Shown in pieces: positions 11,090 through 60,747 of a stretch of 64,000 nt of DNA. Each line of letters starts with the position of its first letter. The first letter of the stretch is position 1. The position numbers and the translations under genes were made by a program. Origin of the DNA: Trueperaceae bacterium (lineage in GTDB: Bacteria; Deinococcota; Deinococci; Deinococcales; Trueperaceae); contig OZ243927.1 of the NCBI GenBank assembly GCA_965213925.1, positions 64,001 through 128,000 on the forward strand, in the 5' to 3' direction. The notes below the pieces were generated by a model, which did no database searches, was not told where the DNA came from, and saw nothing but the letters and a program-made list of their open reading frames with translations.

Positions 11090-11668
11090 TTAGAGGTGAG
11101 GCGTAATCGACGGCATCAGGTTATCAAACGTCCGCCCCGAAGCGTTCTGCCCAATGGCTTGAAACTGCCAGCTATTTCCCTCACGGTAGACTTTCGTCAT
11201 GATCTGCGCGGTGTGGTTTCCTTGCGCCGAGAGGTCGAAGCGGGCGATTTCCTCGCCCGTGCTCTTGTCCACCAAACGGCAAAACGCATTCTCAATCTGC
11301 GAGAAGTTCTCGCCCGTAAAGCTGTTGACGACGAAGACGATGGTCGAGACCTCGCTCGGCACGCCGCTCAAATCTACAATGATTTGCTCATCATCCCCTT
11401 CGCCCGCGCCCGTGCGGTTGTCGCCCGTGTGGATAATGCTCCCGTCACGGCTGCGAAGTTGGCGAAACCAGACCTCATCCACCTTCTGCTTCTGCGCGTT
11501 GAACAAAACCGCGCTCGCGTCCAGGTCGATATCTTGCTGGCGCTTGCCGAAGCCGAAGAACCCGCCTGTTTCCTTCGCGTCCCAGCCGAGCCCCATCACG
11601 ACCTCTTTCAAGCCGCTGCCGCCTTTTTCTAGGCTGATTTTTTGTCCCTTGCTTAAACTTACGCTCAT
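11090..11668 (-). CDS. TerD-family protein (TerZ-like)
   Basis: [25 protein letters not shown]. Confidence 0.93.
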   Translation of the reverse strand: MSVSLSKGQKISLEKGGSGLKEVVMGLGWDAKETGGFFGFGKRQQDIDLDASAVLFNAQKQKVDEVWFRQLRSRDGSIIHTGDNRTGAGEGDDEQIIVDLSGVPSEVSTIVFVVNSFTGENFSQIENAFCRLVDKSTGEEIARFDLSAQGNHTAQIMTKVYREGNSWQFQAIGQNASGRTFDNLMPSITPHL

Positions 11669-11730
11669 GAAGTTCCTTTCGCTGATAATGGTAAGTGCTG
11701 ATGTATTACGGAGATAAACCGCTTAGTTGA

Positions 11731-11799
11731 AAGGACTGAGAGAAAAGGACTGAGGACTGAGTAAAACCCTCTTTTCTCTCAGCATTCAGTCCTTTTCTC
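11731..11799. repeat. AGGACTG heptamer-based inverted repeat (possible terminator)
   Basis: AGAGAAAAGGACTGAGGACTGAG...CTCAGCATTCAGTCCTTTTCTCT; related copy at about 15267-15332. Confidence 0.7.
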
Positions 11800-12954
11800 T
11801 TACTTCCTTCCTGCTCTCCAATTAAACCCAAACCCGTAATGCTCATCCGCCTCACGGTGTCCCGCGAAGTAACGCTCCTCTTTCGTAATCAGAACGTCGC
11901 CTTGGCGGTTTTCAATCGTGCAGATGGCGCAAAAGGTACGCTTAGGGTCGGGGTTATCCAAATTGATGACGATTTCGCGCCCGTTCGGGTCGGTGAGGCT
12001 GAGCCGCGCGTTGACCTCGCCGAAGCCGCGTGCGCCCTCGTAGATAAAGGTGAAGACCATGACCTTGTCGATGAGGTCGGGGCGAAATATCGTCAAGTTC
12101 TCGCCGTCTTGTGATGCGCCGCTGCGGTCATCCTTATCCAAAAGGATATAGGGCGACTCGCCCTTTACGCCGAAGTAGCCGCCGACGGGCTGGATGACGT
12201 GCGAGTCGCCGTCTTGCATCATGAACATGCAGCCCAAGTCGAGGTCGGGCGCTTTTTGGGCAAACCTGCGCTTTTCGGGACTCTGCCAGTTGAGGTTGAC
12301 GTGAACTTGATTCGCGCCGCGTTTGCTGAGGTTGACGCGCTGCTGATCGCCGCGTTTCTCCAGAGTGACTTTGCTCAGATTGACGGTAGGAGGAGGCGCA
12401 GGCTCCGGTTCAGGCGTCGCGGGTTTGATCTCTTCGCCGCCAAAATGCTCGAGAAGAGCACTCAGACCGCCGTTAAACCCTTGCCCCACCGCTGAAACGC
12501 GCCACTCCTCTTTGCGGTAAATCTCGAGCAAAATAATCGCTTTTTCGCTCGAGAAGTCACTCCCCGAAAACTCAAAGCGCATGACCTCTTGGTCGGACGC
12601 GCTGAGGCGAACGTAGCCACTATTTAAGCCGTTCATGCTGCCCGTACCGTCGAGCGACACGGTGAGAACGAGCCGTTCAATCGTATTCGGCAGCTTATCC
12701 AAGTCAATGCGGAACTGCTCGCGCTCGAGCATGTTCCCACCCAACGACTCTAACGCCCCCTCGGGGCTGCGCTTTTGGTTATAAAAGATAAAGTAGCGGT
12801 CGTCGGAGAGCTTGCCGTTCGCGTCCACTCCAAAGAGGCTCACGTCCATATCGCCGGGGACTTGGCTGGATAAGCCGACGCCTAGCTCGAGCCTCTTCTG
12901 CGGGGTCAACGCACTTAACTTGCTCTTCTGACCGCGAACGAAGGTTTGAGACAC
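11800..12954 (-). CDS. TerD-domain plus TerA-like C-terminal domain protein
   Basis: N-terminal KLSDDRYFIFYNQ...[14 protein letters not shown]; Pro linker; C-terminal DLDLGC...LDKDDRSG...GENL. Confidence 0.88.
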   Translation of the reverse strand: MSQTFVRGQKSKLSALTPQKRLELGVGLSSQVPGDMDVSLFGVDANGKLSDDRYFIFYNQKRSPEGALESLGGNMLEREQFRIDLDKLPNTIERLVLTVSLDGTGSMNGLNSGYVRLSASDQEVMRFEFSGSDFSSEKAIILLEIYRKEEWRVSAVGQGFNGGLSALLEHFGGEEIKPATPEPEPAPPPTVNLSKVTLEKRGDQQRVNLSKRGANQVHVNLNWQSPEKRRFAQKAPDLDLGCMFMMQDGDSHVIQPVGGYFGVKGESPYILLDKDDRSGASQDGENLTIFRPDLIDKVMVFTFIYEGARGFGEVNARLSLTDPNGREIVINLDNPDPKRTFCAICTIENRQGDVLITKEERYFAGHREADEHYGFGFNWRAGRK

Positions 12955-12957
12955 CCT

Positions 12958-14523
12958 TTACCGACCCCCGCTGATGATGTCGCCTAAGAGCCCCGAACCA
13001 CCTGCGCCGCGCTGCTCGCCCGTCTGCCGCCTGAGAGCGGACTTTAGCCGGTCGGCGAGTCTCGACAACGGTAAGCTCTGCAAGTAGATACGCCCCGGAC
13101 CCTTCAAGGTTGCCATAAAGAGACCCTCGCCGCCGAAGAGCGCGTTTTTGAAGCCGCCGATGAACTCGATGTTGTAGTCCACCGTGGGAGCCATGCCGAC
13201 TAAGCAACCCGTATCTACGCGCAAGGTCTCGCCCGATTTAAGGTCACGCTGGACGATCGCGCCGCCCGCGTGGATAAAGGCGCGTCCGTCCCCCTTAAGC
13301 CGCTGGAGGATGAACCCCTCACCGCCGAAAAAGCCCGCGCCGATGCGCTTGGTGAAGGCGACGCTGATGTCTACGCCCTTCGCGGCACATAAAAAAGCGT
13401 CCTTTTGACAGAAGAACTCGTTGCCGAATTCGTTCAGGTCAAGCGGAACGATGCGCCCCGGATAGGGCGCGGCGAAGGCGACGTGCCCTTTGCCCTGACC
13501 CTGATACACGAACGAGGTGATGAAGAAGCTCTCTCCGCTGATGGCTCGTCGCAGCCCGCCTAAAAGCCCCTGCATGATGCCGCCGTCACCACCGCCCATG
13601 CCCGTATTCATTTTGATACCGTCGCCCATGTACATCATCGCGCCGACCTCGGCTTGGACGGATTCGCCGTGGTCGAGTTCGACTTCGACGAGCTGCATGT
13701 CGTCACCGAAAATATGATAGTCGATGACGTCGGCGCTACCGCCCTGGTTCATAGTCTGTCCACTGCTCCTCCGAATACTCTCCGCCCCTTGCATCCCTGA
13801 GCCCGACATGGCGGCTCTCTGTTGTTGCGTGGATCCTTGTTGGAAACTTGAGCTTCCCGACGAGGAGGTATTAGAGGCACCAGGCGGCATATTCGGCTTC
13901 GAAGTCTGCACGCTCGGCATGGGCGGCGTGGTCTGTCCGGTGTACTGTCCGTATTGGGTATTGGTCTGAGGGGGCGGCTGGTAATTAGGGTGCGCTTGCG
14001 GCGGCTGGGGTGGAGGGGGCGAGGCGGACTGACCGCCGAAGTGCTCCAAGAGCGCCTCCAACCCTCCCTGAAAGCCTTGCCCTACCGCCGCGAGTCGCCA
14101 CTCATCCTTGAGGTAAAGCTCCGCGAGGATAAGCGCTTTTTCGCCCGAAAGTTCGGCGGCGGCGGTGCTGTAGGTGGCAAAGCCACCATCTGAGCCCGTC
14201 AGCGTGAACTGCGTGTTGCCCGGTCCAGCCTGCTCGCCCGTCACCGTGAAGACGAGCCGCTGCACCTGTGGTGGCAACTTAGCAAGGTCAACATTCACGT
14301 TGACCCTGCCGCTGCTCGCCGGACTCGCGACGATGGCTCCTTCGGGCGAGCTTAACTGGTTGTAAAAGATGAAGTAGCGGTCGTCGCTGAGCCGCCCCGC
14401 GCCGTCCACCCCGAACACGCTGATGTCAGCGTCACTACGGTCGCTGCTCATCGCCACTTGCAAGTTCGTGCTGCGCGTGATTTCCCCCAGCTTCGTCTTC
14501 TGTCCGCGAACGAGGGTGGTCAT
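12958..14523 (-). CDS. TerD-domain / AIM24 (TIGR00266-like) fusion protein
   Basis: N-terminal TerD domain, Pro/Gln/Ser-rich linker, C-terminal GESFF...AFAAPYPG...FFGGEGFILQRL...LFGGEGLF. Confidence 0.88.
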   Translation of the reverse strand: MTTLVRGQKTKLGEITRSTNLQVAMSSDRSDADISVFGVDGAGRLSDDRYFIFYNQLSSPEGAIVASPASSGRVNVNVDLAKLPPQVQRLVFTVTGEQAGPGNTQFTLTGSDGGFATYSTAAAELSGEKALILAELYLKDEWRLAAVGQGFQGGLEALLEHFGGQSASPPPPQPPQAHPNYQPPPQTNTQYGQYTGQTTPPMPSVQTSKPNMPPGASNTSSSGSSSFQQGSTQQQRAAMSGSGMQGAESIRRSSGQTMNQGGSADVIDYHIFGDDMQLVEVELDHGESVQAEVGAMMYMGDGIKMNTGMGGGDGGIMQGLLGGLRRAISGESFFITSFVYQGQGKGHVAFAAPYPGRIVPLDLNEFGNEFFCQKDAFLCAAKGVDISVAFTKRIGAGFFGGEGFILQRLKGDGRAFIHAGGAIVQRDLKSGETLRVDTGCLVGMAPTVDYNIEFIGGFKNALFGGEGLFMATLKGPGRIYLQSLPLSRLADRLKSALRRQTGEQRGAGGSGLLGDIISGGR

Positions 14524-14538
14524 CTTTAACCTACCCGA

Positions 14539-15117
14539 TTAACCGACGTTGACGCCGAAATTCCGCGCCAACGGTCCTAAGCCGCCGTTATAGCCCTGCC
14601 CGACGGCTCTAAACTTCCACTCGTTGTTATGGCGGTAGAGTTCGCCGAAGATCATTGCCGTTTCGGTGCTCGCGTCTTCCGAGAGGTCGTAGCGGGTGAT
14701 TTCGTTGTTACTTTCAGCGTTCACCACACGGATAAAGGCGTTTTGGACCATGCCGAAGTTCTGCTTACGCGAGTCGGCGTCGTGAATCGTTACAGCCACG
14801 ACGAGCTTTTGCACGTCATTGGGCACGCTCGGAAGCTGCACTTTAATCGCTTCGTCGTCCCCTTCGCCCTCGCCCGTGCGGTTGTCGCCCGTGTGCTCGA
14901 CAGAGCCGTCCGAGCTTTTCAGATTGTTATAGAAGATGAAGTCCTGGTCACTGCGAATCTTGCCCGACTCGTTCAGCAAAAAGACGCTCGCGTCGAGGTC
15001 GAAGTCCGAGCCGTCCGTGCTGCGCACGTCCCACCCTAAGCCGACCATCGCGCTCTTTAAGTTCGGGTCTTCCTTGCTGAGACTGACGTTGCCACCTTTT
15101 TGTAGACTGACTGCCAT
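14539..15117 (-). CDS. terD: TerD-family protein
   Basis: [49 protein letters not shown]. Confidence 0.93.
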
Positions 15118-15191
15118 GTTGTGCTCCTCTCGAGATTTATCTTGATAGTTTATTATGCCAAATGTACGTTAAGAATGCGTCAACATCAGGA

Positions 15192-15361
15192 GAGCAATGA
15201 GTTCCGAGCAATTCCCTTTCGGGGTTACGCAGTTTTCCGAAGGAAACGAACGGTGAGCAATAGGTGAGAGAAAAGGACTGAGGACTGACGACTGAGGTTT
15301 GGTCTTTACTTTTCTCTCAGTCCTCAGTCCTTTAACCTTATTTTATCATTGCTCATTGCTG
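15192..15361. repeat. Composite heptamer repeat (GCAATGA/TCATTGC, AGGACTG) carrying a 42-bp nested micro-insertion at 15212-15253
   Basis: Compared with the empty motif GAGCAATGAGTTCCGAGCAATGAG at 45301. Confidence 0.75.
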
Positions 15362-15368
15362 CTTACAC

Positions 15369-15944
15369 CTAAGCGTTCACCCCGTAGGAAGACGCCAGCG
15401 GTCCCAGTCCACCATTAAACCCCTGCCCCACCGCGCGAAACTTCCACTCGCCGTTGTGACGGTAAACCTCGCCAAATACCATCGCCGCTTCAGTGCTGGC
15501 ATCTTCGGAGAGGTCGTAGCGGGCGATTTCGTTGTTACTTTCAGCGTTCACAACACGGATGAAGGCGCTCTGCACCATCCCGAAGTTTTGGCGGCGGCTC
15601 TCGGCGTCGTGAATGGTTACGGTGACGACGACTTTTTGCACGTCGTTCGGGACGCCCTCTAAATTCACTGCGACGACTTCGTCATCGCCCTCACCCTCGC
15701 CCGTGCGGTTGTCGCCTAAGTGCTCCACTGCGCCGTCACTGCTCTTGGCGTTGTTGTAGAAGATGAAATCCTGGTCGCTACGTACCTTGCCCGACTCGCT
15801 GAGCAAAAACGCGCTCGCGTCTAAGTCGAAGTCTGCGCCGTCCGTCGCCCGCAAGTCCCAGCCTAAACCCACGTTAATTTTTTTAAGTCCGGGCTCCGAC
15901 TTGGTCAGCGAGACGTTGCCGCCTTTTTGCAAGTTGACTGCCAT
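15369..15944 (-). CDS. terD: TerD-family protein (TerD/TerE paralog)
   Basis: Close paralog of 14539-15117 with the same motifs. Confidence 0.93.
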
Positions 15945-16130
15945 ATGTGCCTCCTTTACTTCTTCTATTTACGTTAGCATCAGTTTAGTATAGAGATACC
16001 GTTAGAAATGTTACAGGTTATTGGCATCTTAGCTAGTCAGCATTTTAGATAGCCAGGAAAAGCCTCTCGAGCTTCGGCTAACATGCACCCCGACACCGCA
16101 GAGAAAGAAGCTCTATATCTCTTTCAACCT

Positions 16131-17087
16131 CTACATCACGTTCACCGGAACGAACTCGTGATGCAGTTCTTCTGCACCTAAGGGCGTCACCTCGAGCCCG
16201 TAATGCGCCGCTCTTTGCACAATCTGCTCCGCCCACTTTCTATGCGTGTTCGGCTCGCAGAGTCGCCCGTTGCGCAAAAAGACGGCGGGCGCGTCCGCTT
16301 CTAAAATGGCTTGCGCGCTCTCCCACTCCCGCGGGTTGACCTTGTAGCACGCTTCGATAACCGGGATTTGCTCGGGGTGAATCGCCGTTTTGCCGAAGAG
16401 CCCGTGTTGCAAGTCGAGCTTGACCTCTTTGGTTAGCGTTGCGGGGTCGTTCACCGCGTCGTAAACGGGCGCACTGAGGTTGAAACCGAAGGGTTTGAAT
16501 AGCGTAACGAGGCGGTCAACTACGTGCGAGAGAGGCGTGTCGTAAAGGAGCACGCCGCGCTCGCGCCGCAAGGAGAGCAAATTCAAGAGGTCGTTGCCGC
16601 CGATGCGAAGGGATAAGACGCGCCGCCTAATGTGGGGTGAAAGGAGCGTCTCTCTAAGCTGGGTCATGCTCGCTTCGCTAAAGACCTCTTGCGTCTCGAG
16701 CGTCAGCATCAGCGAGAGGTGGCTCTCGATAGGCAAGAGCCCCAAGTAGTGCGCCAAGCTCTCCACCGTCACCTTGGGCAAGACTAAACCGTGCAAGGGA
16801 GCGGTGTTCATGGCGAGGACGTGGCGCATGACCTCAGCGTTGCGAACGCGCACAAAGCGCATAGGCGCGGCGTCGTCGTCCAAGCTGAGGGTGTTTAGAG
16901 CCGTTGCCAGATTATGCAGCGCGTAAGGCAGTTTGGACAATCCTACCGCGTCCTCCGTGCAGTAAATCAGCGAGCGAAGCGGAAACTTCCGACCTCTTCC
17001 GATCGCGACGAGGTCGGGGTGTGTAGCGGGAACGTACAGACTTGCGCCGAGGGCGAGGGCGTCATTCGTGTGAACCGTCGAGGTCAT
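16131..17087 (-). CDS. HpcH/HpaI aldolase/citrate-lyase-like protein, Ter-associated
   Basis: LGASLYVPAT, CTEDAV, RIGGNDL, GKTAIHPEQI. Confidence 0.9.
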   Translation of the reverse strand: MTSTVHTNDALALGASLYVPATHPDLVAIGRGRKFPLRSLIYCTEDAVGLSKLPYALHNLATALNTLSLDDDAAPMRFVRVRNAEVMRHVLAMNTAPLHGLVLPKVTVESLAHYLGLLPIESHLSLMLTLETQEVFSEASMTQLRETLLSPHIRRRVLSLRIGGNDLLNLLSLRRERGVLLYDTPLSHVVDRLVTLFKPFGFNLSAPVYDAVNDPATLTKEVKLDLQHGLFGKTAIHPEQIPVIEACYKVNPREWESAQAILEADAPAVFLRNGRLCEPNTHRKWAEQIVQRAAHYGLEVTPLGAEELHHEFVPVNVM

Positions 17088-18193
17088 ACGAGCCGCCGGA
17101 TGAGGGAGACTGCCTCGTAAGGCGTGGCGCTGTCTTGCTCGGTAGGAACACCTTTCTCCTCTGCCAAAACGCGCAGGTGTTCAGTGTCGGGGTCGGTCAT
17201 GTCGCGCAAGATGACTAGCGCAGGCGTACGCCGCAAAAGGACGCGGGTCGCCTCGCCGATACCCGGTTTGACGAGGTTTTCGTCCTCTATCTTGTGCTCT
17301 GCTTTGAGATGATCTAAGTATTGGCGGCGATTCTTGAAGAGGTCGGGGGTGGGCTCGAGCGTCTTTATATTTGGCGTGAGGGAAGTTGCGACCTCCTCAA
17401 TCTGTTCGATAAACCAGCGGCTCCGGTCGAAGGGCGAGAGGTCATCCAATAACACGCAGCCGTGAAAGTCATCCTCTTCAATCTGCTCATTCAAAATTGA
17501 ACGGCTGACGAGCCCGCTCACGACGCCGCCCAAAATCGCACTCGGGATGAGGTAATCTTGACTAGTCGCGCTGTGCGCCGCGCTGCCGCAGAGGTCACTC
17601 ACGGCGAGAAGCTTAGTAGGAAGGTCCGTGCCGTGCGCAGCGTTGAACGCTGTGATGCTCTGCTGAAGCTCCCTAGCGATCACTCCTTTGCCCGTCCATC
17701 CATCCAGAAAATGAATTCGGTCTTCCGGGTGATGATTCAAGATAAAACGAAGGGCGTTCGCGTCAATCCCCCGGTCACGAATGATGCTTACGGAGTAATG
17801 CTGCACCGCTCGGTTAAAGCGGCTGCGCAAGAGGCGCGTCAGGGCGACGCCGACGGGCGTTCCCGCTCTCGCCAATGAAACGAGGACGACTTCGCCGCTC
17901 GGGGTAACTTCGTCCGAATAAGCCGCCAAGTCCAAGAGGTGCTGAGCAAACCGCGTCAAATTCCGCGCTATCGCCTCGTCAAAGACGCGCCAATACGCCG
18001 CGCTCGGGGCGCGTTCACGGCTTATCATCTCGCTGTAATGCTTCGCGCCGCTCTGAATGTAACGCTCTTTTTCAGCTACGGGCGTGGGCTCGAGCCTCAA
18101 CACTTTGAGCAAAAACGTCACGTCGCTCGGCGCGTAAGACCCGCTTAGTCCCCTTTGCATTTCATTTCTAAAGCCGTCAATGACCTGAGACAT
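17084..18193 (-). CDS. StiP-family (PRTase-like) protein with C-terminal PELOTA-like domain
   Basis: GSY...DVTFLLK, HYSEM, LVSLARAGTP, DGWTGKG, DYLIPS, VKPGIGEATRVLLRR. Confidence 0.9.
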   Translation of the reverse strand: MSQVIDGFRNEMQRGLSGSYAPSDVTFLLKVLRLEPTPVAEKERYIQSGAKHYSEMISRERAPSAAYWRVFDEAIARNLTRFAQHLLDLAAYSDEVTPSGEVVLVSLARAGTPVGVALTRLLRSRFNRAVQHYSVSIIRDRGIDANALRFILNHHPEDRIHFLDGWTGKGVIARELQQSITAFNAAHGTDLPTKLLAVSDLCGSAAHSATSQDYLIPSAILGGVVSGLVSRSILNEQIEEDDFHGCVLLDDLSPFDRSRWFIEQIEEVATSLTPNIKTLEPTPDLFKNRRQYLDHLKAEHKIEDENLVKPGIGEATRVLLRRTPALVILRDMTDPDTEHLRVLAEEKGVPTEQDSATPYEAVSLIRRLV

Positions 18194-18944
18194 AATGTTC
18201 CAACCCCTCCTCTCGAATTTGCGAACGGCTGGGCAGGACCGCGTAGTCGCAACCCAGCATATAACCCAGGTCGCTCAGACTGTCGCCCAAGCCCAGCGTC
18301 ACGACCTCTTCACGCTGTTCAAAACGTTCTTTTAAGTAGGTGACTGCGTTTGCTTTACTTATCGCCTCGGGCAAAACGGCGACGTTGTTGCCGTTGGCGA
18401 TTACGCGCAACTCGGGCTCGTTCTCGAGCAACTCCTGACAGAGACGGTGCGCCTTTCCTACCGCTTCTAAGTCCGCCCGGGGATGCTTAATGACCAGATA
18501 GACCTCTTGCCCGAAGTCCCCGATGAGGCGTACACGTAAGCCTAAAGACTCGCTCTCGCTAAGGTGCTCGAGTTCTTTCACCACCTTGTTCAAGACCTCT
18601 TGCGTTTGCGCTAAGACCTCTCCGACGTGCGCCAGCCAACCCTCGTCAGGGCTGCCGTCAGCCTGCAAAACCGTGCCGCCGTGGTTGACGATTGCGCCGT
18701 GTGCGAAGCGGCATCCGCTCGGGAGCTTCACGCGAGAGAGCGCCGCCGCGTCGCGCCCCGTCGTTGGGATAACGGTGGTGGTGCTGAGGAGCCACTCGAG
18801 TAGGGTCCTCTGCGCAGGCGTCATAAAGGAGAGCGGTTCGCCCGTTTTGCTGATCGCGCCAACTTCAAGTACCGCGTCAGGCGGACACTTGCGCCGGGTT
18901 TGAAAGATCGTGTCGTCCAAATCCAAAAAGGTCAGGATGCGCAT
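18177..18944 (-). CDS. HAD-superfamily phosphatase, Ter-associated
   Basis: DLDDTIFQT motif I, PTTGR, SKANAV, GDSLSD. Confidence 0.9.
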   Translation of the reverse strand: MRILTFLDLDDTIFQTRRKCPPDAVLEVGAISKTGEPLSFMTPAQRTLLEWLLSTTTVIPTTGRDAAALSRVKLPSGCRFAHGAIVNHGGTVLQADGSPDEGWLAHVGEVLAQTQEVLNKVVKELEHLSESESLGLRVRLIGDFGQEVYLVIKHPRADLEAVGKAHRLCQELLENEPELRVIANGNNVAVLPEAISKANAVTYLKERFEQREEVVTLGLGDSLSDLGYMLGCDYAVLPSRSQIREEGLEHYVSGH

Positions 18945-20092
18945 AAGGTCTCCTGCACCGCTAAAGTAATAGGGATTCCACCCAGTTGTTCGGATAGGTC
19001 GTGCTCGGGGTGAATATCTGGTGTGTCGTAGAGAATGAGGACTGTGCCGTATTGACCTCTTGTGACGTTATAAAGGTAGTTAGGCGTCGTACCGTCCACC
19101 GGGTCAGCAAACCGTAAGATGCTGCCGATACTCTCCCCTTCTAAAATGGGGGAACGGGTGGTGCTCTGAAAGTAGACGGTGTAGCCGCGCTGCTCGAGGT
19201 CCAAAGCGAGGCGGTAAGGTAGATGCAAATGTTCACCTGTGCCTAAAACGAGGATGTTTTCGTCTGGAGATAGGTTCAAGGACTCGAGCATTCTACTTGC
19301 ATCCACCTCTAAAGCTGCTCGTTTACCCAAGCGCCCATACTCACGGCTCACCTCGACCATCTGACCTCTTGACTCATAGCTCAAATCGGGTGGACGAAAC
19401 GAGGGGTTCGGCTCAAAGGTGTAGCGCCCTTGCAAGAGGTTGATGCGGGTCAGCGGCGCGGGCATACTGCGCTTCACCTCTCGGGGCTCACTCAACCAAT
19501 CCGTGAGGCTGACGAGGGTGATATGTTCGACGTTCGGGTTAATCTCGGCGTAGCTTCGCGCAAGGTTCGTCAGGGTCGTTCCGGTGCTTATTTCGTCGTC
19601 AACGAGCACGAGACTTCTGGCGCTCTTAAAAATCCGCTGACTTTCCGCGTTATTCGGTCTATAAATAAGGTGTCCCGTCGCGTGTGAGTGAGGTTCCCTA
19701 AAGCTGAGGGCGACGCTCGCGTCCTCTAGCTGCGCTCTCGTCGTGTGGATGAAAAGCGCATCGTCTAAACCTCTTTCTAAGCACGCCTCGAAAACGCCTT
19801 GCCCTAACCCCGTCGCCGTCTCCGCCATCGCGATAAAGAGGATAGGCTCGGGAAGTTGTAACGCCGCAATCTTTTCTGCGAGTTTCTGGTGAGTCGCCTT
19901 CACCGTGCTCGGTGGCACGCTCAAATGCTTACCCAACACCTTGCTGACGAACAAAAAGCCGCGTTTCGGGTTCGCCCGAACTGCGAAGCCGCATAGCTCG
20001 TCCAAAGCCCAATCTTGCCGAGAAAGCTCGAGTCTCAAAACCCCACTAGGCAACCTAACCATGTGCGTATCAGCAGGAGAAATGCGGCTCAT
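18932..20092 (-). CDS. Phosphoribosyltransferase with TRSP domain
   Basis: RANPKRGFLFVSKVLGKH, AETATGLG, EPHSHA, LVDDEISTG, TTRSP, NYLYN. Confidence 0.92.
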   Translation of the reverse strand: MSRISPADTHMVRLPSGVLRLELSRQDWALDELCGFAVRANPKRGFLFVSKVLGKHLSVPPSTVKATHQKLAEKIAALQLPEPILFIAMAETATGLGQGVFEACLERGLDDALFIHTTRAQLEDASVALSFREPHSHATGHLIYRPNNAESQRIFKSARSLVLVDDEISTGTTLTNLARSYAEINPNVEHITLVSLTDWLSEPREVKRSMPAPLTRINLLQGRYTFEPNPSFRPPDLSYESRGQMVEVSREYGRLGKRAALEVDASRMLESLNLSPDENILVLGTGEHLHLPYRLALDLEQRGYTVYFQSTTRSPILEGESIGSILRFADPVDGTTPNYLYNVTRGQYGTVLILYDTPDIHPEHDLSEQLGGIPITLAVQETLCAS

Positions 20093-21150
20093 CCCGCAAC
20101 CTCTTGTTCAACCTCTCCCAAGGCGAGCGCCGCGCTCCCCATCGCCACGCGCAAGCCCGTGCGCGGCTGCGGCACATCATGAGGTTCACACCTGCCTGTA
20201 AGCAGTTGCAGCGCCCAGTGGTAAAAGTTCAAGCCGCTCAGCATCGCCATCGGCAAGCCGCCGGAGGCTCTCGGGTTGATCTCCAAGAGGTAAGGTACGT
20301 CCCGCTCATCATCCTTGAACTGAATGTTGTACACCCCCGTGAGCTTCAAAGTTTTTGTCAACGCCGCCGCCATCTCGACAACGTCAGGATTGTCCTCCAA
20401 CACCTGCGCGGACCCCTCCCCTTTGCGCCGCACTACACACCGGACGAGTTCGCCTTGATGCGCCAAGCAGTCCACGCTACGCTCGTCGCCAGCTAGATAT
20501 CTCATGACTAAAAACGGGGTAAATTCGCCCGTTTCCATCTCTGCTGCTGACATGAGGTCGCGCAGATGCGCAGGCGAGATGATGAGCGCGTTGCGCAAGA
20601 GGTGGCTGAGACGCACCTCGCCCAACACGCGAAAGCCGCTCGCGAAAATGCCCTCTATAGGTTTGATGCAAAGTCTACCGTTTGGGCTGTCAGGTGAATA
20701 CTCGAGTTCTTCTAGCGCCTCGTCAAGCTCGGCCGCCGTTTTGACGACGCGGTGAAGAGGTATAGGGGCTAAGTCGGGAGGCAAGGCGGCGTAGAGGGCG
20801 GCCTTGTTCTCAACGAGTTCCAACACAGCCGGCTCTGCCGCAACGAGTAGGCGCGTTCCCACCTCTTCAAATTTCGTCCGGTTCTTAGCCAGCTCGAGCT
20901 TGTGCCGTTCGGGAATCAGCACGTCTATCTGGTGGTTTCGGCGTAGATTCAACGCCCACCGGAGATACCGCTCAACCTCTTCTCTACTTTCGGAAGTTGC
21001 GTTAGGCTCGAGCACCCTCTTGTCCGCCGCACTAAGCATCACTGCGTTGGCGCGCTTGTGGCTCGCGGTGATGACGTAGTCGCCTTCAGCTTTAAGATTT
21101 TGAATAAGCTGCGCGGTGCTCGAGAAGTTGTGATTAAACCAGATATTCAC
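20089..21150 (-). CDS. ATP-grasp protein, Ter-associated
   Basis: CIKPIEG, ERSVDCL, NIQFK, LLEINPRASGG. Confidence 0.9.
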   Translation of the reverse strand: MNIWFNHNFSSTAQLIQNLKAEGDYVITASHKRANAVMLSAADKRVLEPNATSESREEVERYLRWALNLRRNHQIDVLIPERHKLELAKNRTKFEEVGTRLLVAAEPAVLELVENKAALYAALPPDLAPIPLHRVVKTAAELDEALEELEYSPDSPNGRLCIKPIEGIFASGFRVLGEVRLSHLLRNALIISPAHLRDLMSAAEMETGEFTPFLVMRYLAGDERSVDCLAHQGELVRCVVRRKGEGSAQVLEDNPDVVEMAAALTKTLKLTGVYNIQFKDDERDVPYLLEINPRASGGLPMAMLSGLNFYHWALQLLTGRCEPHDVPQPRTGLRVAMGSAALALGEVEQEVAG

Positions 21151-33915: not shown

Positions 33916-34530
33916 GTGACGACCAAAGCGACCTCTCGCCGTACCCAAATCCTCAGCGCCGCCCGCAGTATCCTCGCCGAAAAGGGCTTTGAAGCCACCA
34001 CCGTCTCTGAGATCGTAGCGAGCGCGGGCGTCGCGCAAGGCACCTTTTACCTCTACTTCCCCTCGAAAGTTTCGCTCGTCGAAGCCCTCTGCGAAGAGAT
34101 GTTCGCGCAGATTTTGGAGGCGGTTCACGCTGCGATCACCTCGGCGGAGAGTTTCGCGGCGGGGTTGGGGGCGGGCGTCCAGGCTGTTTTCGAGGAGAGT
34201 CAGAACTACCAGGACGTGCTCGAAATCATCAACGCGCGGCTCGGCTTTTTGAGCACACCGAGCGAGTTAGCGAAGCTAGACGAGCCCTATTACCAACTCG
34301 TCAAAGCGTTTATTGAGCAAGGGCAAACCTCCGGTGAGGTCCGCGTAGACGCCGACCCCGACCTCTCGGCGCGGCTTGTAGTCGGCATGATCGAACGCGC
34401 CACCGAAGACTGCTTTCTCTACCGGCCGGAGTTACCAAGTGAACCTTACATCAAAGAGGTAACGCGCTTTATTCTGCGGGCGCTGGAGCCGCCAAGAAGT
34501 GAGGAGCAAGAAGTGAGGAGCAAGAAGTAA
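33916..34530 (+). CDS. TetR-family regulator
   Basis: GFEATTVSEIVASAGVAQGTFYLYFPSK; 3' end formed by a 14-bp tandem repeat AAGAAGTGAGGAGC. Confidence 0.94.
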   Translation: MTTKATSRRTQILSAARSILAEKGFEATTVSEIVASAGVAQGTFYLYFPSKVSLVEALCEEMFAQILEAVHAAITSAESFAAGLGAGVQAVFEESQNYQDVLEIINARLGFLSTPSELAKLDEPYYQLVKAFIEQGQTSGEVRVDADPDLSARLVVGMIERATEDCFLYRPELPSEPYIKEVTRFILRALEPPRSEEQEVRSKK

Positions 34531-34632
34531 GGAGGCTCAACCGAAACGCACGGGCGCTCTACAGGTGCTTTCCCGAATCAGCGTTTGTACGTTCTCAAGC
34601 TCACATTACTGACCTCGGCAGCCCAACCATAC

Positions 34633-45300: not shown

Positions 45301-45370
45301 GAGCAATGAGTTCCGAGCAATGAGTAAAAGTCTTTCAACTCATTGCTCATTGCTTTCAACTCATTGCTTC
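45301..45370. repeat. GCAATGA/TCATTGC heptamer inverted repeat (empty reference copy)
   Basis: GAGCAATGAGTTCCGAGCAATGAG...CTCATTGCTCATTGCTTTCAACTCATTGCT. Confidence 0.75.
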
Positions 45371-45393
45371 TTACCTTTTCGCTACACTGCGCT

Positions 45394-46505
45394 ATGCTTC
45401 TCACCCCTCGGCGCATCCTCCACATCGACGCGGACGCCTTTTACGCCAGCGTGGAGCAGCGCGATAAGCCCGAATTAAGAGGTCAACCTGTCGCGGTGGG
45501 GTGGTCCGAGCAGGGCGGGGTGGTCTTGACTGCGAGCTACGAGGCGCGGCGCTACGGCGTCCATAGTGCGATGCCGTCTATTCAAGCAAAACGTCTTTGT
45601 CCCGAACTCATCTTCGTGCCCGCTCGTATGGCGCTTTACAAAGAACTCAGCCTCGCCATCCGTGAGATTTTTGGACGCTATACCGATGTGCTCGAGCTTG
45701 TCTCCATCGACGAGGCGAGGCGTATTTGGACGTGACCCAACCTAAACAGGGTCCGGCGTCGGGCACGCTCGTTGGCAGAGCGATCAAGCAAGAGGTCAAA
45801 GAGGAGACGGGGCTCACCGTCTCGGTAGGCGTGGCGGCGGGCAAGTTCTTAGCGAAGCTCGCCAGCGGGATGAACAAGCCCGACGGTCTCACCGTGATTA
45901 CACCAGAGGACGCCGCCGCGATTTTGATCTCTTTGCCTGTTGCCAAGATTCACGGCGTCGGTCCGGTGACAGCCCAGAGACTGCATGAACGTCATATCTT
46001 TACAGGGGGTGACTTGCTGGAATGCTCGTTGGGAGAACTCGAGGCTCACTTCGGCAAGTTCGGCGGTTTTCTCTACCAGATTGTGAGAGGTCAAGACGAG
46101 CGTCCGGTTAAAGCGAGAGAGCGCAAGTCGTACGGGGCAGAACGCACCTTTGTAACGCCTTTGCAACGTGAGGAAGAGGTGCTGGGGGTGCTGGGGCCAC
46201 TTACTGAACACGTTGCGCTTTACCTCGAGAACGCCAACCTCTGCGCCCGCACGCTAACGCTTAAACTTAAAGACAAGCACTATCAGGGCGTCACCCGCTC
46301 CGTGACGCCTGCGCAGCCGCTCCAAAACGTCGAGACGATGACCTTGTTTGTTCGGCAACTCCTACGCGCCAACCTTGACCAGCTACCCGTTCGGCTCGCT
46401 GGGGTGAGCGTGAGCAATTTGCAAGGACCGAGTAAGGTGGTGCAGCCTGGGCTTTTTCCTGACTTAGATTCTAATTCAGCGTGCGCACAAGCTGAGCGTC
46501 AATAA
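45394..46505 (+). pseudogene. dinB: DNA polymerase IV, frameshifted by a 5-bp duplication
   Basis: HIDADAFYASVE, ASYEAR; SIDEA|YLDVT split by GAGGCGAGGC at 45712-45721; LAKLASGMNKPDG downstream. Confidence 0.92.
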
Positions 46506-56949: not shown

Positions 56950-57825
56950 ATGTCCGACGTTGCGACCAAACACCTCCCCGTACTCATCTCCACCCCGCAC
57001 TCCTCCGGCTTCGTCCCCGACGACATCTTGAGCGAGATGTTGGGCGACAGAGCGAGCGATGAAGGTTTGCGCGAGCGGTTCTTAAAGCGGCTTTTCTTCG
57101 AGGGCGACCCCTACACCGACCAGATTTTCCGGGCGGAGGGGGCGCTGCACTTCAACGCGGCGGCGTCGCGCTTTGTGGTGGACTATAACCGGCGGCGCGA
57201 CGAGAGCGGCGCGAACGGCGTCATCAAGCTCACTGACTTCAGCGCCGAACCGCTTTATCCCGAGGATTATAGGCTCAGTCACGAAGCCGCCGAAGCCCGC
57301 TTAGAAACCTATTGGGACCCTTTCCACAAAGCCATCGAACACGCCCTAGAGCGCGAAGACATCCTCTTTTTCGTGGATGGTCACGCGATGGCACCTGTAG
57401 GACCCGCCATCGGACCCGACAGCGGCAAGTTGCGCCCGGCGCTCACGCTGATTACGGGTGGCGACAAGGAGGGCAAACCCGCAACACCGGGAGCCTACAC
57501 CAGCGTAGACGCCGAGACCGCGCACGCGCTCATTGAGAGGCTCGAGCATCGCTTCAAAGGCATTATGAACGTCTGTCCCAACGTGCCGCCGCGCGCCCTT
57601 CTCAATTCGCCCTTTATGATGGCGGACATCCAGCGCCGCTACAGCAACCCCGTCTTCGCGCACCATAAACCGGGCTTTTCGCTAGAGGTCAACCGCGCCC
57701 TCTACTTGCAAGGTTGTGAGAACGGCTTCGACGAGGCGATACCGGAGCACATCGAGATGCTCAATGCGGCATTCAATAACTTTTTAGAGGACATTATTCC
57801 GCTGTTTGAGAAGCGCGGGGGGTAG
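56950..57825 (+). CDS. N-formylglutamate amidohydrolase family
   Basis: STPHSS, DPYTD, SRFVVDYNR, YWDPFH, DGHAM, LEVNRALY. Confidence 0.9.
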   Translation: MSDVATKHLPVLISTPHSSGFVPDDILSEMLGDRASDEGLRERFLKRLFFEGDPYTDQIFRAEGALHFNAAASRFVVDYNRRRDESGANGVIKLTDFSAEPLYPEDYRLSHEAAEARLETYWDPFHKAIEHALEREDILFFVDGHAMAPVGPAIGPDSGKLRPALTLITGGDKEGKPATPGAYTSVDAETAHALIERLEHRFKGIMNVCPNVPPRALLNSPFMMADIQRRYSNPVFAHHKPGFSLEVNRALYLQGCENGFDEAIPEHIEMLNAAFNNFLEDIIPLFEKRGG

Positions 57826-57849
57826 GCTCGAGGGTTGAATAGTACGTCG

Positions 57850-57883
57850 AAAGCGGTGCAAAGGTGATTTTGCACCGCTTTTT
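57850..57883. terminator. Bidirectional intrinsic terminator
   Basis: AAAGCGGTGCAAA-loop-TTTGCACCGCTTTTT between convergent genes. Confidence 0.75.
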
Positions 57884-57919
57884 GTTGATGGGACTTTCAG
57901 GTCGGTGTGAGCTGTCGGC

Positions 57920-58105
57920 TCAATCTCTCTTATTGATGCCGTCCCTTTTATTGATCCCATCTCGTTTGTTGATGCCGTCCCTTTTGTTAATCCCGTCTTG
58001 GTCTTTTCCCTCCCCGCCCTTCGAGGGTTCACCCGAGTCTTTTTTCTCTTGCTTGAGAAAATCATTCTTATTTGTGGAATCAGCTTCTCTACTTTGGTCG
58101 CTCAT
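57920..58105 (-). CDS. 61-aa peptide with C-terminal (DGINKR)x4-D repeats
   Basis: AAGGAG RBS 8 nt before ATG; repeat units differ only synonymously; downstream hairpin. Confidence 0.8.
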   Translation of the reverse strand: MSDQSREADSTNKNDFLKQEKKDSGEPSKGGEGKDQDGINKRDGINKRDGINKRDGINKRD

Positions 58106-58177
58106 GCCCGGTCTCCTTAGTCTGAATTTAGAGCAAAGCTCTTTGGGTCGTGCGAAGGTCTTTCCTTCAGAAGCAGT

Positions 58178-60577
58178 CTAAACACTTACCTCTGACTGCA
58201 CCCTGAACGGGTGACTTTTAGGAAGCTGATTCTGATGCTGCTTGATGTTGTCGGGATGTCCGGTGACTTCGAAGAGATACATCGCCTCTTGCCACGCCTC
58301 GAAATCTTCGTTTAGCTCTGCAAGGTTAGCGAGTGTCGTCGCAATAACGTAGGAGTCTCCCGCTTTCTGCGCATGTTCGTACGCCTGTAAATACGCCCCT
58401 TCCGCCTCACGTAAGTCGTTCATCTTATGGCAGTCGCCCAAATTGTTCCAAGCCACAGCCATCGTCGCAGGGTCACTGACTTCCTCAGCCAAAGCGATAA
58501 CGCCTCGGTATATCTCTATCGCCCTTTCAAATTCTTTGAGGTTCTCGTACACGCACCCGAGATTGATAAGCACCATCGTACGCAACTCCGGGTTTGTTCC
58601 TGCCGCCGCCAACGCCTCCCGGTACGCTTCTTCCGCATCCTCACCTGCACTGCTCTGCGCTACCGCTGCGTTGTTGAGCGCCCCCACCCACCGCGTCTTC
58701 TTCCCGACTGCCAGCCACAACGCCGCCGCCCGCCTGAACTGCTTCGCCGCCTCTTCGTACTTACCTTTTGAGAACGCCACGTTCCCCAACACATTCTGCC
58801 CCTCCGCCCGCGCCTCGATACTCCCTTTAAGTGCGATTTCCGCCGACCTCTTCGCCTCTTGCGGATGACCCAAGCGGTAGTGAAGCGTCGCTCTAAGCGC
58901 CAGCACTTCAGGTGTTTCGGCGAGGTTTTGGATGCAGGCGAACGCTTCTTGATAGCGACCTGAGCGCTCTAAGGCGCGACCTTTCAAAAAGGTCACGGGG
59001 CGCGTGTCGGGGGCGTCTTGGAGGGTTTCAAAAGCGCGTTGCGGAAAGCCGCGACGCAAGAGTTCTTCCGCCCAGGCGAGGTACGCACTAACAACATCGG
59101 CTTCGTCCTCTTGCGCCCAAAGAGGTCTCGAGCGTTTATAGAGCGGAAACGCCTCGACGCCCGATAAGCAGCGGGCGAGTTGCAGCGACAGGGGACCTAA
59201 GCGGGTGGGGTGCGCTTCTAAGAGTTCTAGCGCGACGCGGCGCACGCGCACCTTGCCCGAAGGCTCGACGAGACCGGCGGCGAGCAAGGACTCGAGCGCT
59301 TCAGCCATCGCTTTGGCATTGAGGGACAGTGCGCGGCGCACGAGCGCGGTGTCCGGGTCGGCGTCGTCTAAAAGGGCGAGCGTCAAGTAGACCTCTTTGG
59401 CGGTGGCGGGCAGGGCGGCGAGTTGGGCTTCCAACGCTTTTTCAGGCGGTTCGCCGCGCAAGAAGGCTTCGACCAAGGCGGGAACGCCTTGGGTGTGTTC
59501 CCACGCGCCGGTGTGCTTTTCCAAAGCGCGTTCGGACAAGGGGGACAGCTCGAGCCGCATATCCACCCCGAACGGCGGGTTCTCGCGTGAGGCGATGACG
59601 AGGCGGGCTTTCGGGCGGAGGTCATGAAGCTTGCGCAGGAGCGCTTGACTGGCGGTGTCCACGTTCTCCCAGTTGTCGACCAGCCAAAAGCCCTCCAGCT
59701 TAGCCAGCGTCTGCAGCACCGCACCCTCGCCCTCTTGGAGTGTCGCGCCTACGAGGGGTTCCAGCGTCGCGTAGGGCAACCCGGAACGTCCGGGCAGGTA
59801 GGTTCCTTGCGCACTCTTGAGGAGCGCCGTCTTGCCTATGCCCGCGCCGCCGCAGACCCAGGCGCATTCGCCCCTAGCCAAGGTCAGGAGCCGCGCCGCT
59901 TCGCTCTCGCGCCCGACGAGCACGCGCTGGAGCCGCGCCCTCGCGTCGCGCGGAGAGAACACGAGCGTGACGCCGTACCCCTGCGCCTCCGCTTTAAGGT
60001 GCGCCGCTAGCGGGTGGTCGCCCGCTTGTAGAAGGAGGTAGAAGCGGCTCAGGTCTTCGGGCTCGCTCTCCGGTGCGCCGGGCAGCGTGAAGGCACGTTC
60101 AGCGCGCGCCGCCGCCCCGGTAAAACGTCCTTGGGCGGCGCCATTTTCGGCTAGGCGCAGTGCGGCATGTTGAACCCGCGCCGCGAGGTCCTCTCTCGAG
60201 GCGTAGACCCATTCCTCTAGCTCGGGGCTCCAGTCGGAGAGGTAGACGCCCTCTAGGAACGCGCCCGTGTAGAGCGTCAACGCCCGCTCTGCGTCGCCAC
60301 GCTCTAACGCTCCTAAGAGGTCCGCTACATCCGAGGAGAAGGCGGGCCATACGCGCAATTCGTCCGCTTCCAAGGTGCCCGGCGCACCCTTGCGGAGCCG
60401 ACTGAGCGCCGCCGAAAGGCTGTTCAGGTGACTGCTCGCGCTAGGCCAGAAGAGTTCGGCTAAGTAGCGCCGCTCCTTTGGACCCTCCAGGGCAAGATAC
60501 GCCAGCAACAAGAGCGGTTTGACCCGCGAAAAGTCGCCGTCCTCAAAGCGAAGCCCCCCCAAGGTCAAGAGCTTCAT
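58178..60577 (-). CDS. SARP/AfsR-like regulator: wHTH-BTAD, P-loop NTPase (STAND-like), TPR repeats
   Basis: KPLLLLAYLALEG...LAELFWP, LYTGAFLEG, GGAGIGKT, WLVDNWE, C-terminal TPRs (NVLGNV, NLG, WNNLG). Confidence 0.85.
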   Translation of the reverse strand: MKLLTLGGLRFEDGDFSRVKPLLLLAYLALEGPKERRYLAELFWPSASSHLNSLSAALSRLRKGAPGTLEADELRVWPAFSSDVADLLGALERGDAERALTLYTGAFLEGVYLSDWSPELEEWVYASREDLAARVQHAALRLAENGAAQGRFTGAAARAERAFTLPGAPESEPEDLSRFYLLLQAGDHPLAAHLKAEAQGYGVTLVFSPRDARARLQRVLVGRESEAARLLTLARGECAWVCGGAGIGKTALLKSAQGTYLPGRSGLPYATLEPLVGATLQEGEGAVLQTLAKLEGFWLVDNWENVDTASQALLRKLHDLRPKARLVIASRENPPFGVDMRLELSPLSERALEKHTGAWEHTQGVPALVEAFLRGEPPEKALEAQLAALPATAKEVYLTLALLDDADPDTALVRRALSLNAKAMAEALESLLAAGLVEPSGKVRVRRVALELLEAHPTRLGPLSLQLARCLSGVEAFPLYKRSRPLWAQEDEADVVSAYLAWAEELLRRGFPQRAFETLQDAPDTRPVTFLKGRALERSGRYQEAFACIQNLAETPEVLALRATLHYRLGHPQEAKRSAEIALKGSIEARAEGQNVLGNVAFSKGKYEEAAKQFRRAAALWLAVGKKTRWVGALNNAAVAQSSAGEDAEEAYREALAAAGTNPELRTMVLINLGCVYENLKEFERAIEIYRGVIALAEEVSDPATMAVAWNNLGDCHKMNDLREAEGAYLQAYEHAQKAGDSYVIATTLANLAELNEDFEAWQEAMYLFEVTGHPDNIKQHQNQLPKSHPFRVQSEVSV

Positions 60578-60747
60578 GCGCTCACTATAGCGGATTCACG
60601 TCCTTTTTTCACGTTTCAAAGGGTGAGCTAAGGCGTTTATCATCCGCTCGAGCCTCTAGCTTGACGAGAGCGAAATGCGTGCCAGCTTTTCTCCCACTTG
60701 GTGCACCGTCAAATAAAGCGGAATCCGTGTGAAATCCTCGAGACTCA

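Follow-up and report, generated by a model that had tools for sequence, protein, structure and literature searches.

What is encoded by a short, repetitive open reading frame (ORF) lying directly behind a large regulator gene is the question raised by this locus. The two genes are found in a 64,000-nt stretch of contig OZ243927.1 of a Trueperaceae bacterium (phylum Deinococcota), hereafter called the window. According to the ORF listing both occupy the minus strand, the regulator being 799 aa and the product of the small ORF 61 aa long (Table 1). An earlier interpretation of this DNA from its letters, hereafter the sequence-only reading, considered the pair a candidate novel peptide/sensor system in which the small ORF would provide an intracellular partner or an output of the regulator. 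Our tentative interpretation is that the small ORF is AfsS-like, serving as a cofactor or an output of the AfsR-type regulator beside it. Such a pairing has a direct experimental precedent in AfsR/AfsS, which the sequence-only reading did not name, and the idea of a partner or output thus gains ground while the label 'novel system' is too strong.

The sequence-only reading described the small ORF accurately. It follows the regulator at a distance of 72 bp on the same strand (minus, which had been left unstated) and specifies, in the codons that had been given, a charged head of 36 residues, many of them Lys, Asp, Glu, Ser or Gly, and a tail of four tandem DGINKR hexapeptides closed by a final Asp. 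An AAGGAG motif sits 7 nt 5' of the ATG, where the minus-strand spacer ends in ...TAAGGAGaccgggcATG. The peptide, short and probably disordered, has a grand average of hydropathy (GRAVY) of -2.02, 14 acidic and 15 basic residues, a Gly content of 13.1% and few hydrophobic residues (four Ile, with Phe and Leu once each); the lack of a signal peptide noted previously agrees with its hydropathy.

Evidence that the repeats matter as a peptide comes from the pattern of nucleotide substitutions. Tandem Repeats Finder placed the repeat at 57930-57997 (period 18, 3.8 copies, 78% matches, score 80). The four 18-nt units vary in 7 of 18 columns, namely the third position of each of the six codons and, in the Arg codon, the first position as well, and all ten differences from the consensus unit are synonymous. 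Simulations with an equal number of random substitutions did not reproduce this outcome once in 300,000 trials, the analytic probability being (10/54)^10 = 4.7e-8. When the differences were classified as synonymous or non-synonymous frame by frame, the split was 10/0 for the DGINKR frame and 7/3 for SLLLIP, the antisense frame whose third positions coincide with those of DGINKR; the remaining four frames retained 0-1 of 10 as synonymous. Since all ten are synonymous, the DGINKR frame is probably translated. Between every pair of units the synonymous sites are saturated (proportion of synonymous differences, pS, 0.82-1.5) without any amino-acid change (non-synonymous divergence, dN, of 0); therefore, the repeats are old and tightly constrained by purifying selection on the DGINKR frame, as the sequence-only reading had supposed. 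Three or more tandem peptide units were encountered solely in this ORF and its antisense shadow among the 1851 ORFs of 30-200 aa surveyed in the window and 14 related loci (224 kb).

The architecture of the regulator, as judged from structural models, is AfsR-like: a SARP domain, composed of an OmpR-type winged helix and a BTAD region, is followed by a STAND NTPase and C-terminal tetratricopeptide repeats (TPR). In Pfam searches TPR_12, TPR_2 and TPR_1 scored above their cut-offs (E 9e-15 to 2e-5 for the TPR families) and TPR_MalT below its own, with the strongest TPR stretches at residues 591-620 and 669-738. The full-length AlphaFold model (predicted local distance difference test, pLDDT, 85.9) had as its top PDB match the STAND-TPR protein 6mfv (E 1.1e-12). 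For a separate model of residues 1-230 (pLDDT 90.2), the top PDB chains were 8k60_J (E 1.1e-5), 8hvr_I (2.9e-5) and 8k60_I (4.8e-5), with TM-scores of 0.52-0.62; these are chains of the Streptomyces AfsR SARP domain bound to the afsS promoter. The next match was Mycobacterium tuberculosis EmbR (2ff4_A, E 5.4e-4), and four matches in all were obtained at E<=0.001. At the sequence level the SARP assignment is weak: no family was matched by the N-terminus of the regulator itself, and Pfam BTAD was recognised in 2 of 11 N-termini of its family (best E 6.7e-4). Source databases label the relatives SARP, AfsR/SARP or BTAD, and PF00931 (NB-ARC) is precomputed for many of them, while the 'HD' latch motif described for NB-ARC domains (bioRxiv 10.64898/2026.09.02.748808) was not located. 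Residues G246, G248 and K249 of the P-loop are invariant in 21 family members, the AAA_16 match being weak (E 0.006). The wHTH-BTAD-NTPase-TPR order put forward in the sequence-only reading is borne out by the TPR, P-loop and model matches. Orthology with Streptomyces AfsR is not supported: there was no profile match, it belongs to a Deinococcota clade of its own, and it has 799 aa against 980-993 aa. Members of this ~800-aa family are found across Deinococcota, in Trueperaceae, Meiothermus, Calidithermus and Deinobacterium, the best relatives being 85, 83 and 81% identical and the next 62%; in a maximum-likelihood tree they form a clade with 100/100 support apart from longer paralogs, within which the protein of the window groups with its 81-85% identical relatives.

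AfsR/AfsS is a textbook global switch of antibiotic production and is regarded as a speciality of Streptomyces and actinomycetes. The afsS gene lies directly downstream of afsR and is activated by AfsR (PMC10832544). AfsS of S. coelicolor consists of 63 aa with three 12-aa repeats (PMC10832544; PMC2267785), while that of S. avermitilis contains the hexapeptide NTHITD four times in its 87 aa, and AfsS-like proteins are only 17-38% identical, yet all contain 2-5 repeats (PMC10832544). Binding of AfsS to AfsR (dissociation constant 4.7 uM) requires the repeats and raises promoter occupancy by AfsR; the same source describes the mode of action of the repeats on AfsR as still unsettled (PMC10832544). 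AfsS orthologs escape BLAST and were identified as short repeat ORFs just downstream of afsR, with which they are widely co-conserved; the survey of AfsR-like proteins reported there is of Actinomycetota only (bioRxiv 10.64898/2026.09.02.748808).

The pair in the window shares with AfsR/AfsS the SARP-NTPase-TPR order of the regulator and the small gene immediately downstream on the same strand, 72 nt away here. The product of that gene has 61 aa as compared to 63-87 aa (the criterion being <200 aa), and its four tandem hexapeptides fall within the range of 2-5 repeats and are as many as in S. avermitilis AfsS. Neither small protein has a DNA-binding domain and both are too variable for BLAST. 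The small ORF thus corresponds to the working definition of AfsS in position, size and repeats, and its product probably works like AfsS; membership of the AfsS family is not claimed. Two further observations count in favour of an AfsS-like role. The regulator and the small ORF are on one strand with no terminator listed between them, and the strict purifying selection falls on the repeats, which in AfsS are the binding element. A literature search, conducted partly on titles and the beginnings of abstracts, found no such regulator/mini-protein pair in Deinococcota, and the literature found on AfsS-like proteins concerned actinomycetes only.

Under this interpretation the product of the small ORF would be a disordered protein of 61 aa, highly charged and similar in its action to Streptomyces AfsS. 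The protein would be made together with the adjacent regulator or under its control, through co-transcription or activation, and may bind the regulator through its four tandem hexapeptides, which in turn would tune DNA binding or activation by the regulator. A complex prediction with the full-length regulator alignment and the peptide scored 0.01 against a mark of 0.32; it was run without controls on a peptide whose own fold is uncertain, and speaks neither for nor against binding.

Several observations weigh against the AfsS-like interpretation. The phylum differs, Deinococcota here and Actinomycetota there. DGINKR is made of Lys, Arg and Gly among others, whereas AfsS repeats such as NTHITD are rich in Thr, His, Asn and Asp, and the regulator is ~190 residues shorter than AfsR. 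A profile of the N-termini of the family retrieved no AfsR chain from the PDB at E<=10. The peptide matched no Pfam and no NCBIfam family. Promoter sequences do not help either. SARP boxes of 22 bp consist of a pair of 11-bp direct repeats, with 8 bp between the 3' copy and the -10 element, and no clear SARP-type box or afs-box-like promoter was seen in the 72-nt spacer; the only 11-bp-spaced repeat there, GAAAGACC/GCACGACC, is weak (6/8) and lies 12 rather than 8 nt before a poor -10 hexamer, TAAATT. Comparison of related loci is also unfavourable. The matches listed include at least 14 such loci, and of the 14 compared, four are full-length orthologs with 44-51% identity, six are longer paralogs and the other four match in part, which means that the comparison covers regulators at most 51% identical to that of the window and leaves out the three closest genomes, those with 81-85% identical regulators. 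Repeat ORFs beside homologous regulators were what the sequence-only reading had set in advance as its test, and among the matches listed a repeat-bearing small ORF was present downstream of none of the four full-length orthologs and none of the six paralogs (0/10), whereas afsS is co-conserved with afsR; all four orthologs are instead followed by a gene for a homologous secreted Peptidase_S8 subtilase of 530-650 aa. Finally, the codon usage of the small ORF is foreign. Its G+C content at third codon positions (GC3), for which the amino-acid composition predicts 0.703, is 0.517 (P 0.0012); each of its five Arg codons is a rare one, and with an adaptation index of 0.549 it ranks below all 54 genes of the window. 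The AAGGAG motif followed after 5-9 nt by a start codon occurs nine times in the window as compared to 5.7 times in shuffled sequences (1.6x), so that the ribosome site is supportive but undecisive, and this too counts against a gene.

The last of these points bear on whether the small ORF is a gene at all. The tandem array of 18-bp units might be non-coding, lodged in a leftover stretch between genes; alternatively, the opposite strand might be the coding one, with a Leu-rich ORF of 105 aa (57864..58181, +). A GC3 and an adaptation index below those of every window gene and a ribosome-site motif that is scarcely enriched would fit this, as would the 7 of 10 substitutions that remain synonymous in the antisense SLLLIP frame. 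Moreover, the ORF lacks even a self match in both protein collections searched (5.8 billion and 1.84 billion entries), that is, it was probably not called by gene callers. Against these stand the wholly synonymous pattern confined to the DGINKR frame, which random substitution failed to produce, and an ATG with AAGGAG at 7 nt; the antisense ORF, for its part, begins with a GTG within the hairpin at 57851-57880, has no ribosome site and carries M/I and L/R changes, and no Rfam family was found over 57700-58400. We therefore judge a non-genic origin to be improbable and consider with good confidence that the small ORF is a real gene. Its absence from the collections probably reflects its having been skipped by gene callers, and the lack of homologs in those collections is therefore uninformative.

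A word-indexed search of 5.8 billion proteins with the peptide gave 238 candidates, none at E<=10, and there was no usable match in the ESM Atlas. Tblastn searches returned nothing from plasmids and seven phage records, all at E>=0.04, while the window and the 14 loci, searched by both tblastn and blastn, contained nothing but the self match. An exhaustive phmmer search of 1.84 billion representatives yielded four matches (E 1e-4 to 9e-4), all of them repeat proteins of low complexity (240-401 aa), which were not accepted as homologs. P0122, a metagenomic protein of 401 aa with ~12 tandem hexapeptides of the form (D/E)VNK(K/R)D at residues ~290-370, came closest to DGINKR among these representatives (E 1.5e-4); the resemblance was judged to be one of low complexity and not of homology. 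EF-hand, dockerin, RTX and left-handed beta-helix motifs were considered and set aside, since DGINKR does not space its Asp, Asn and Gly residues as these motifs require.

What usually stands behind this regulator is suggested by the four orthologous loci. The subtilases encoded there are of the subtilisin/thermitase type, not kexin, and three of the four have a lipoprotein-type signal with a Cys. Given that all four orthologs are followed by such a gene, the family is suggested normally to control, or to work with, an extracellular protease. In three of the four loci a mini-ORF beginning MPRSA lies between regulator and subtilase, out of frame with the latter and overlapping its ribosome site and start, and its first five codons differ by synonymous changes only; it might be translated as an upstream ORF or specify a small partner protein. 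Neither the fourth locus, L003, nor the window contains this mini-ORF. No subtilase gene was found in the 64-kb window, nor was any of the genes flanking the pair found in the orthologous loci. For these reasons, the ancestral downstream partners appear to have been replaced in this lineage, with the DGINKR gene at the junction. Judging from the loci compared, the DGINKR gene was added in this lineage and is not a partner conserved across the regulator family.

An alternative is that the small ORF encodes an orphan of the hydrophilin kind, a disordered protein serving in stress or as 'filler' that became co-transcribed with the regulator by an accident of rearrangement, without any specific partnership. 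Hydrophilins are delimited by a hydrophilicity index >1 and a Gly content >6% (PMC7448490). The GRAVY and Gly content of the peptide agree with this, hydrophilins being a compositional class and not a homology family, and the peptide resembles hydrophilin/LEA-like proteins in being small and probably disordered. Its lack of homologs in the searches made, the absence of the ORF from all ten regulator relatives among the matches listed, a local gene order unshared with any ortholog examined and the foreign codon usage point in the same direction. On the other hand, the Pfam and NCBIfam searches gave no likeness to any late embryogenesis abundant (LEA), KGG or CsbD family, and the loose 11- or 20-mer motifs of LEA proteins contrast with the exact hexapeptide seen here. 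Bulk hydrophilicity would tolerate conservative changes, whereas four identical hexapeptides maintained over saturated synonymous divergence point to a sequence-specific interaction, and the AfsR/AfsS precedent gives meaning to the position of the ORF. We consequently regard the orphan hydrophilin as rather unlikely.

The AfsS-like interpretation can be carried one step further, to the proposal that a SARP-STAND-TPR regulator outside Actinomycetota independently acquired a tandem-repeat mini-protein partner in place of the mini-ORF and the subtilase. We consider this proposal unlikely as it stands. If true, a STAND regulator whose TPR sensor is paired with a repeat mini-protein would be a recurrent, convergent design, in which a multivalent ligand might bridge or cluster regulator molecules. 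Repeat ORFs that evolve rapidly and follow such regulators would in that case constitute a hidden class of cofactors missed by gene callers, and the pair would suggest that annotation misses small, fast-evolving ORFs of this kind systematically. A Deinococcota pair with a simpler, perfectly repeated hexapeptide would offer an independent minimal system for the engagement of repeats by a STAND-TPR protein. The linkage with a subtilase and a conserved mini-ORF, in turn, is a first handle on the function of the ~800-aa family of Deinococcota regulators.

The subtilases bring to mind a different possibility, namely that the 61-aa peptide is a precursor cut at Lys-Arg into four hexapeptides, which would be processed in trans and serve as a signal sensed by the TPR region, as in RRNPP systems, or as the cores of a ribosomally synthesised and post-translationally modified peptide (RiPP). 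The layout is suggestive: a leader precedes identical repeated units delimited by Lys-Arg, as in multi-core RiPP and fungal Kex2 precursors, and a TPR receptor gene precedes a small peptide gene, as in Rap-Phr, NprR-NprX, PlcR-PapR and AimR-AimP. Subtilisin-type proteases mature Phr peptides in Bacillus, and all four regulator orthologs among the matches listed are paired with a secreted Peptidase_S8 subtilase. RRNPP receptors are built of a helix-turn-helix (HTH) domain, or a phosphatase, fused directly to TPR, and their pro-peptides have an N-terminal secretion signal and yield mature ligands of 5-10 aa. The peptide of the window differs in that it has neither signal sequence nor hydrophobic stretch, SARP and STAND domains precede the TPR region of its neighbour, the host is not a Firmicute, and there are no adjacent export or import genes. 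No maturase, exporter or protease is encoded within ~6 kb on either side. Beyond the ATP-grasp gene of a Ter cluster, 37 kb away, no recognised maturase family is represented in the 64-kb window, and the sequence-only reading was right that none is adjacent. As regards Kex2, the host is a bacterium, a secretory signal is missing from the peptide, and the subtilases of the orthologs are not kexin-like. Each of the RiPP, Kex2 and RRNPP analogies drawn in the sequence-only reading thus fails in a defining feature that was tested: a maturase, a kexin-type protease with secretion, and a signal peptide with the matching receptor architecture, respectively. A cleaved precursor is accordingly highly improbable. 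The body of the regulator, NTPase plus TPR, is also that of the STAND-TPR regulators MalT and Pyrococcus PH0952 (6mfv), the latter being its best whole-chain match. These proteins differ in sensing small molecules or larger protein partners, and we know of no tandem-repeat mini-protein partner of PH0952/MalT-like regulators.

The small ORF shares the frame of the regulator: the 24 codons of the spacer are open and a single TAG separates the two (58103-58180, minus). It could in principle represent a C-terminal extension of the regulator produced by read-through of the TAG. However, the TAG is positioned at the conserved end of the family, relatives terminating in ...RSGVNV, ...RSGVGV or ...RSGSSV at the same place, and the ORF has an ATG and a ribosome site of its own. 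The chance of the same frame with 24 open codons is ~0.1, which is not significant, and we consider read-through extremely unlikely.

Table 1. Positions of the features discussed; numbering follows the window for the first eight entries and the respective compared locus for the others.
Feature	Position	Strand	Details
AfsR-type regulator	58178..60577	minus	799 aa: SARP domain, STAND NTPase, TPR repeats
SARP domain	59918..60577	minus	OmpR-type winged helix + BTAD; residues 1 to ~220, model fold
Walker A P-loop	59828..59851	minus	GGAGIGKT; residues 243-250
C-terminal TPR sensor region	58181..59113	minus	residues ~489-799; all-helical repeats in model
Promoter-like site of regulator	60584..60612	minus	GTGAAA, 17 nt, TATAGT; ends 6 nt before ATG
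Spacer, regulator to small ORF	58106..58177	minus	72 nt; AAGGAG Shine-Dalgarno at 58113-58118
61-aa ORF	57920..58105	minus	ATG start, TGA stop; head 57998-58105, DGINKR x4 57926-57997, final Asp
Hairpin (window)	57851-57880		12-bp stem; between small ORF and convergent FGase gene 56950-57825 (+)
Subtilase gene, L001	5363-6949		downstream of regulator ortholog
Subtilase gene, L002	8444-10051		downstream of regulator ortholog
Subtilase gene, L003	8573-10198		downstream of regulator ortholog
Subtilase gene, L004	7239-9191		downstream of regulator ortholog
Mini-ORF, L001	5311-5360		MPRSA(Y/L)xL(E/M)(E/D)xx(Y/W)(V/L/I)EV; ~20 nt past regulator stop
Mini-ORF, L002	8395-8444		same pattern; ~20 nt past regulator stop
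Mini-ORF, L004	7187-7240		same pattern; ~20 nt past regulator stop

The sequence-only reading had placed a terminator behind the small ORF. A hairpin is indeed present there (-27.7 kcal/mol, z -4.40, none of 200 shuffles equally stable), and it does not figure in the list of the consensus terminator scan. Its tail on the strand of the small ORF is UUUC only, the T-run being on the plus strand; for this reason the hairpin mainly terminates the convergent FGase amidohydrolase gene and suits it better than the small ORF. The consensus scan listed nothing terminator-like or sigma-70-like in the spacer. At the other end of the pair, the distance between the TATAGT hexamer and the start codon of the regulator implies that its mRNA is leaderless or nearly so. 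No motif shared by the regulator promoter and the spacer was seen. Hexamers resembling -10 elements were noted 5-8 nt before start codons in L002, L003, L005, L006 and L008, and the -35 region of the regulator (60575-60625, minus) is covered by two exact copies of the heptamer ACGTGAA that lie 13 bp apart. The neighbouring genes recognised by Pfam encode the FGase amidohydrolase and two class-I methyltransferases, in line with the amidohydrolase and methyltransferases pointed out in the sequence-only reading, and also a DUF3179 protein, an NAD kinase and a cytidylate kinase.

Other features were observed in the window and in the compared loci. The Ter cluster mentioned above is a complete Ter-type stress cluster (11090-21150, minus) with five TerD-domain genes, one of them fused to AIM24, and genes for a C-C bond lyase, a StiP protease-PELOTA protein, PRTase_2/TRSP and the Ter-associated ATP-grasp protein. 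A gene for a Y-family DNA polymerase of the IMS/DinB type is split into two overlapping ORFs (45343-45735 and 45726-46505, plus), the first accounting for 130 aa at the N-terminus and the second for the other 259 aa; the split reflects a frameshift or else an error in sequencing. In L006, a stretch resembling a tRNA gene, with a T-arm of the GGTTCGAATCC type recognised by eye, lies on the opposite strand directly downstream of the paralogous regulator (~9000-9060). Three copies of a 14-bp unit, CAAGAAGTGAGGAG, are present in the window at 34493-34534 (96% matches), at the 3' end of a TetR-family gene and just upstream of a cytochrome P450 gene.

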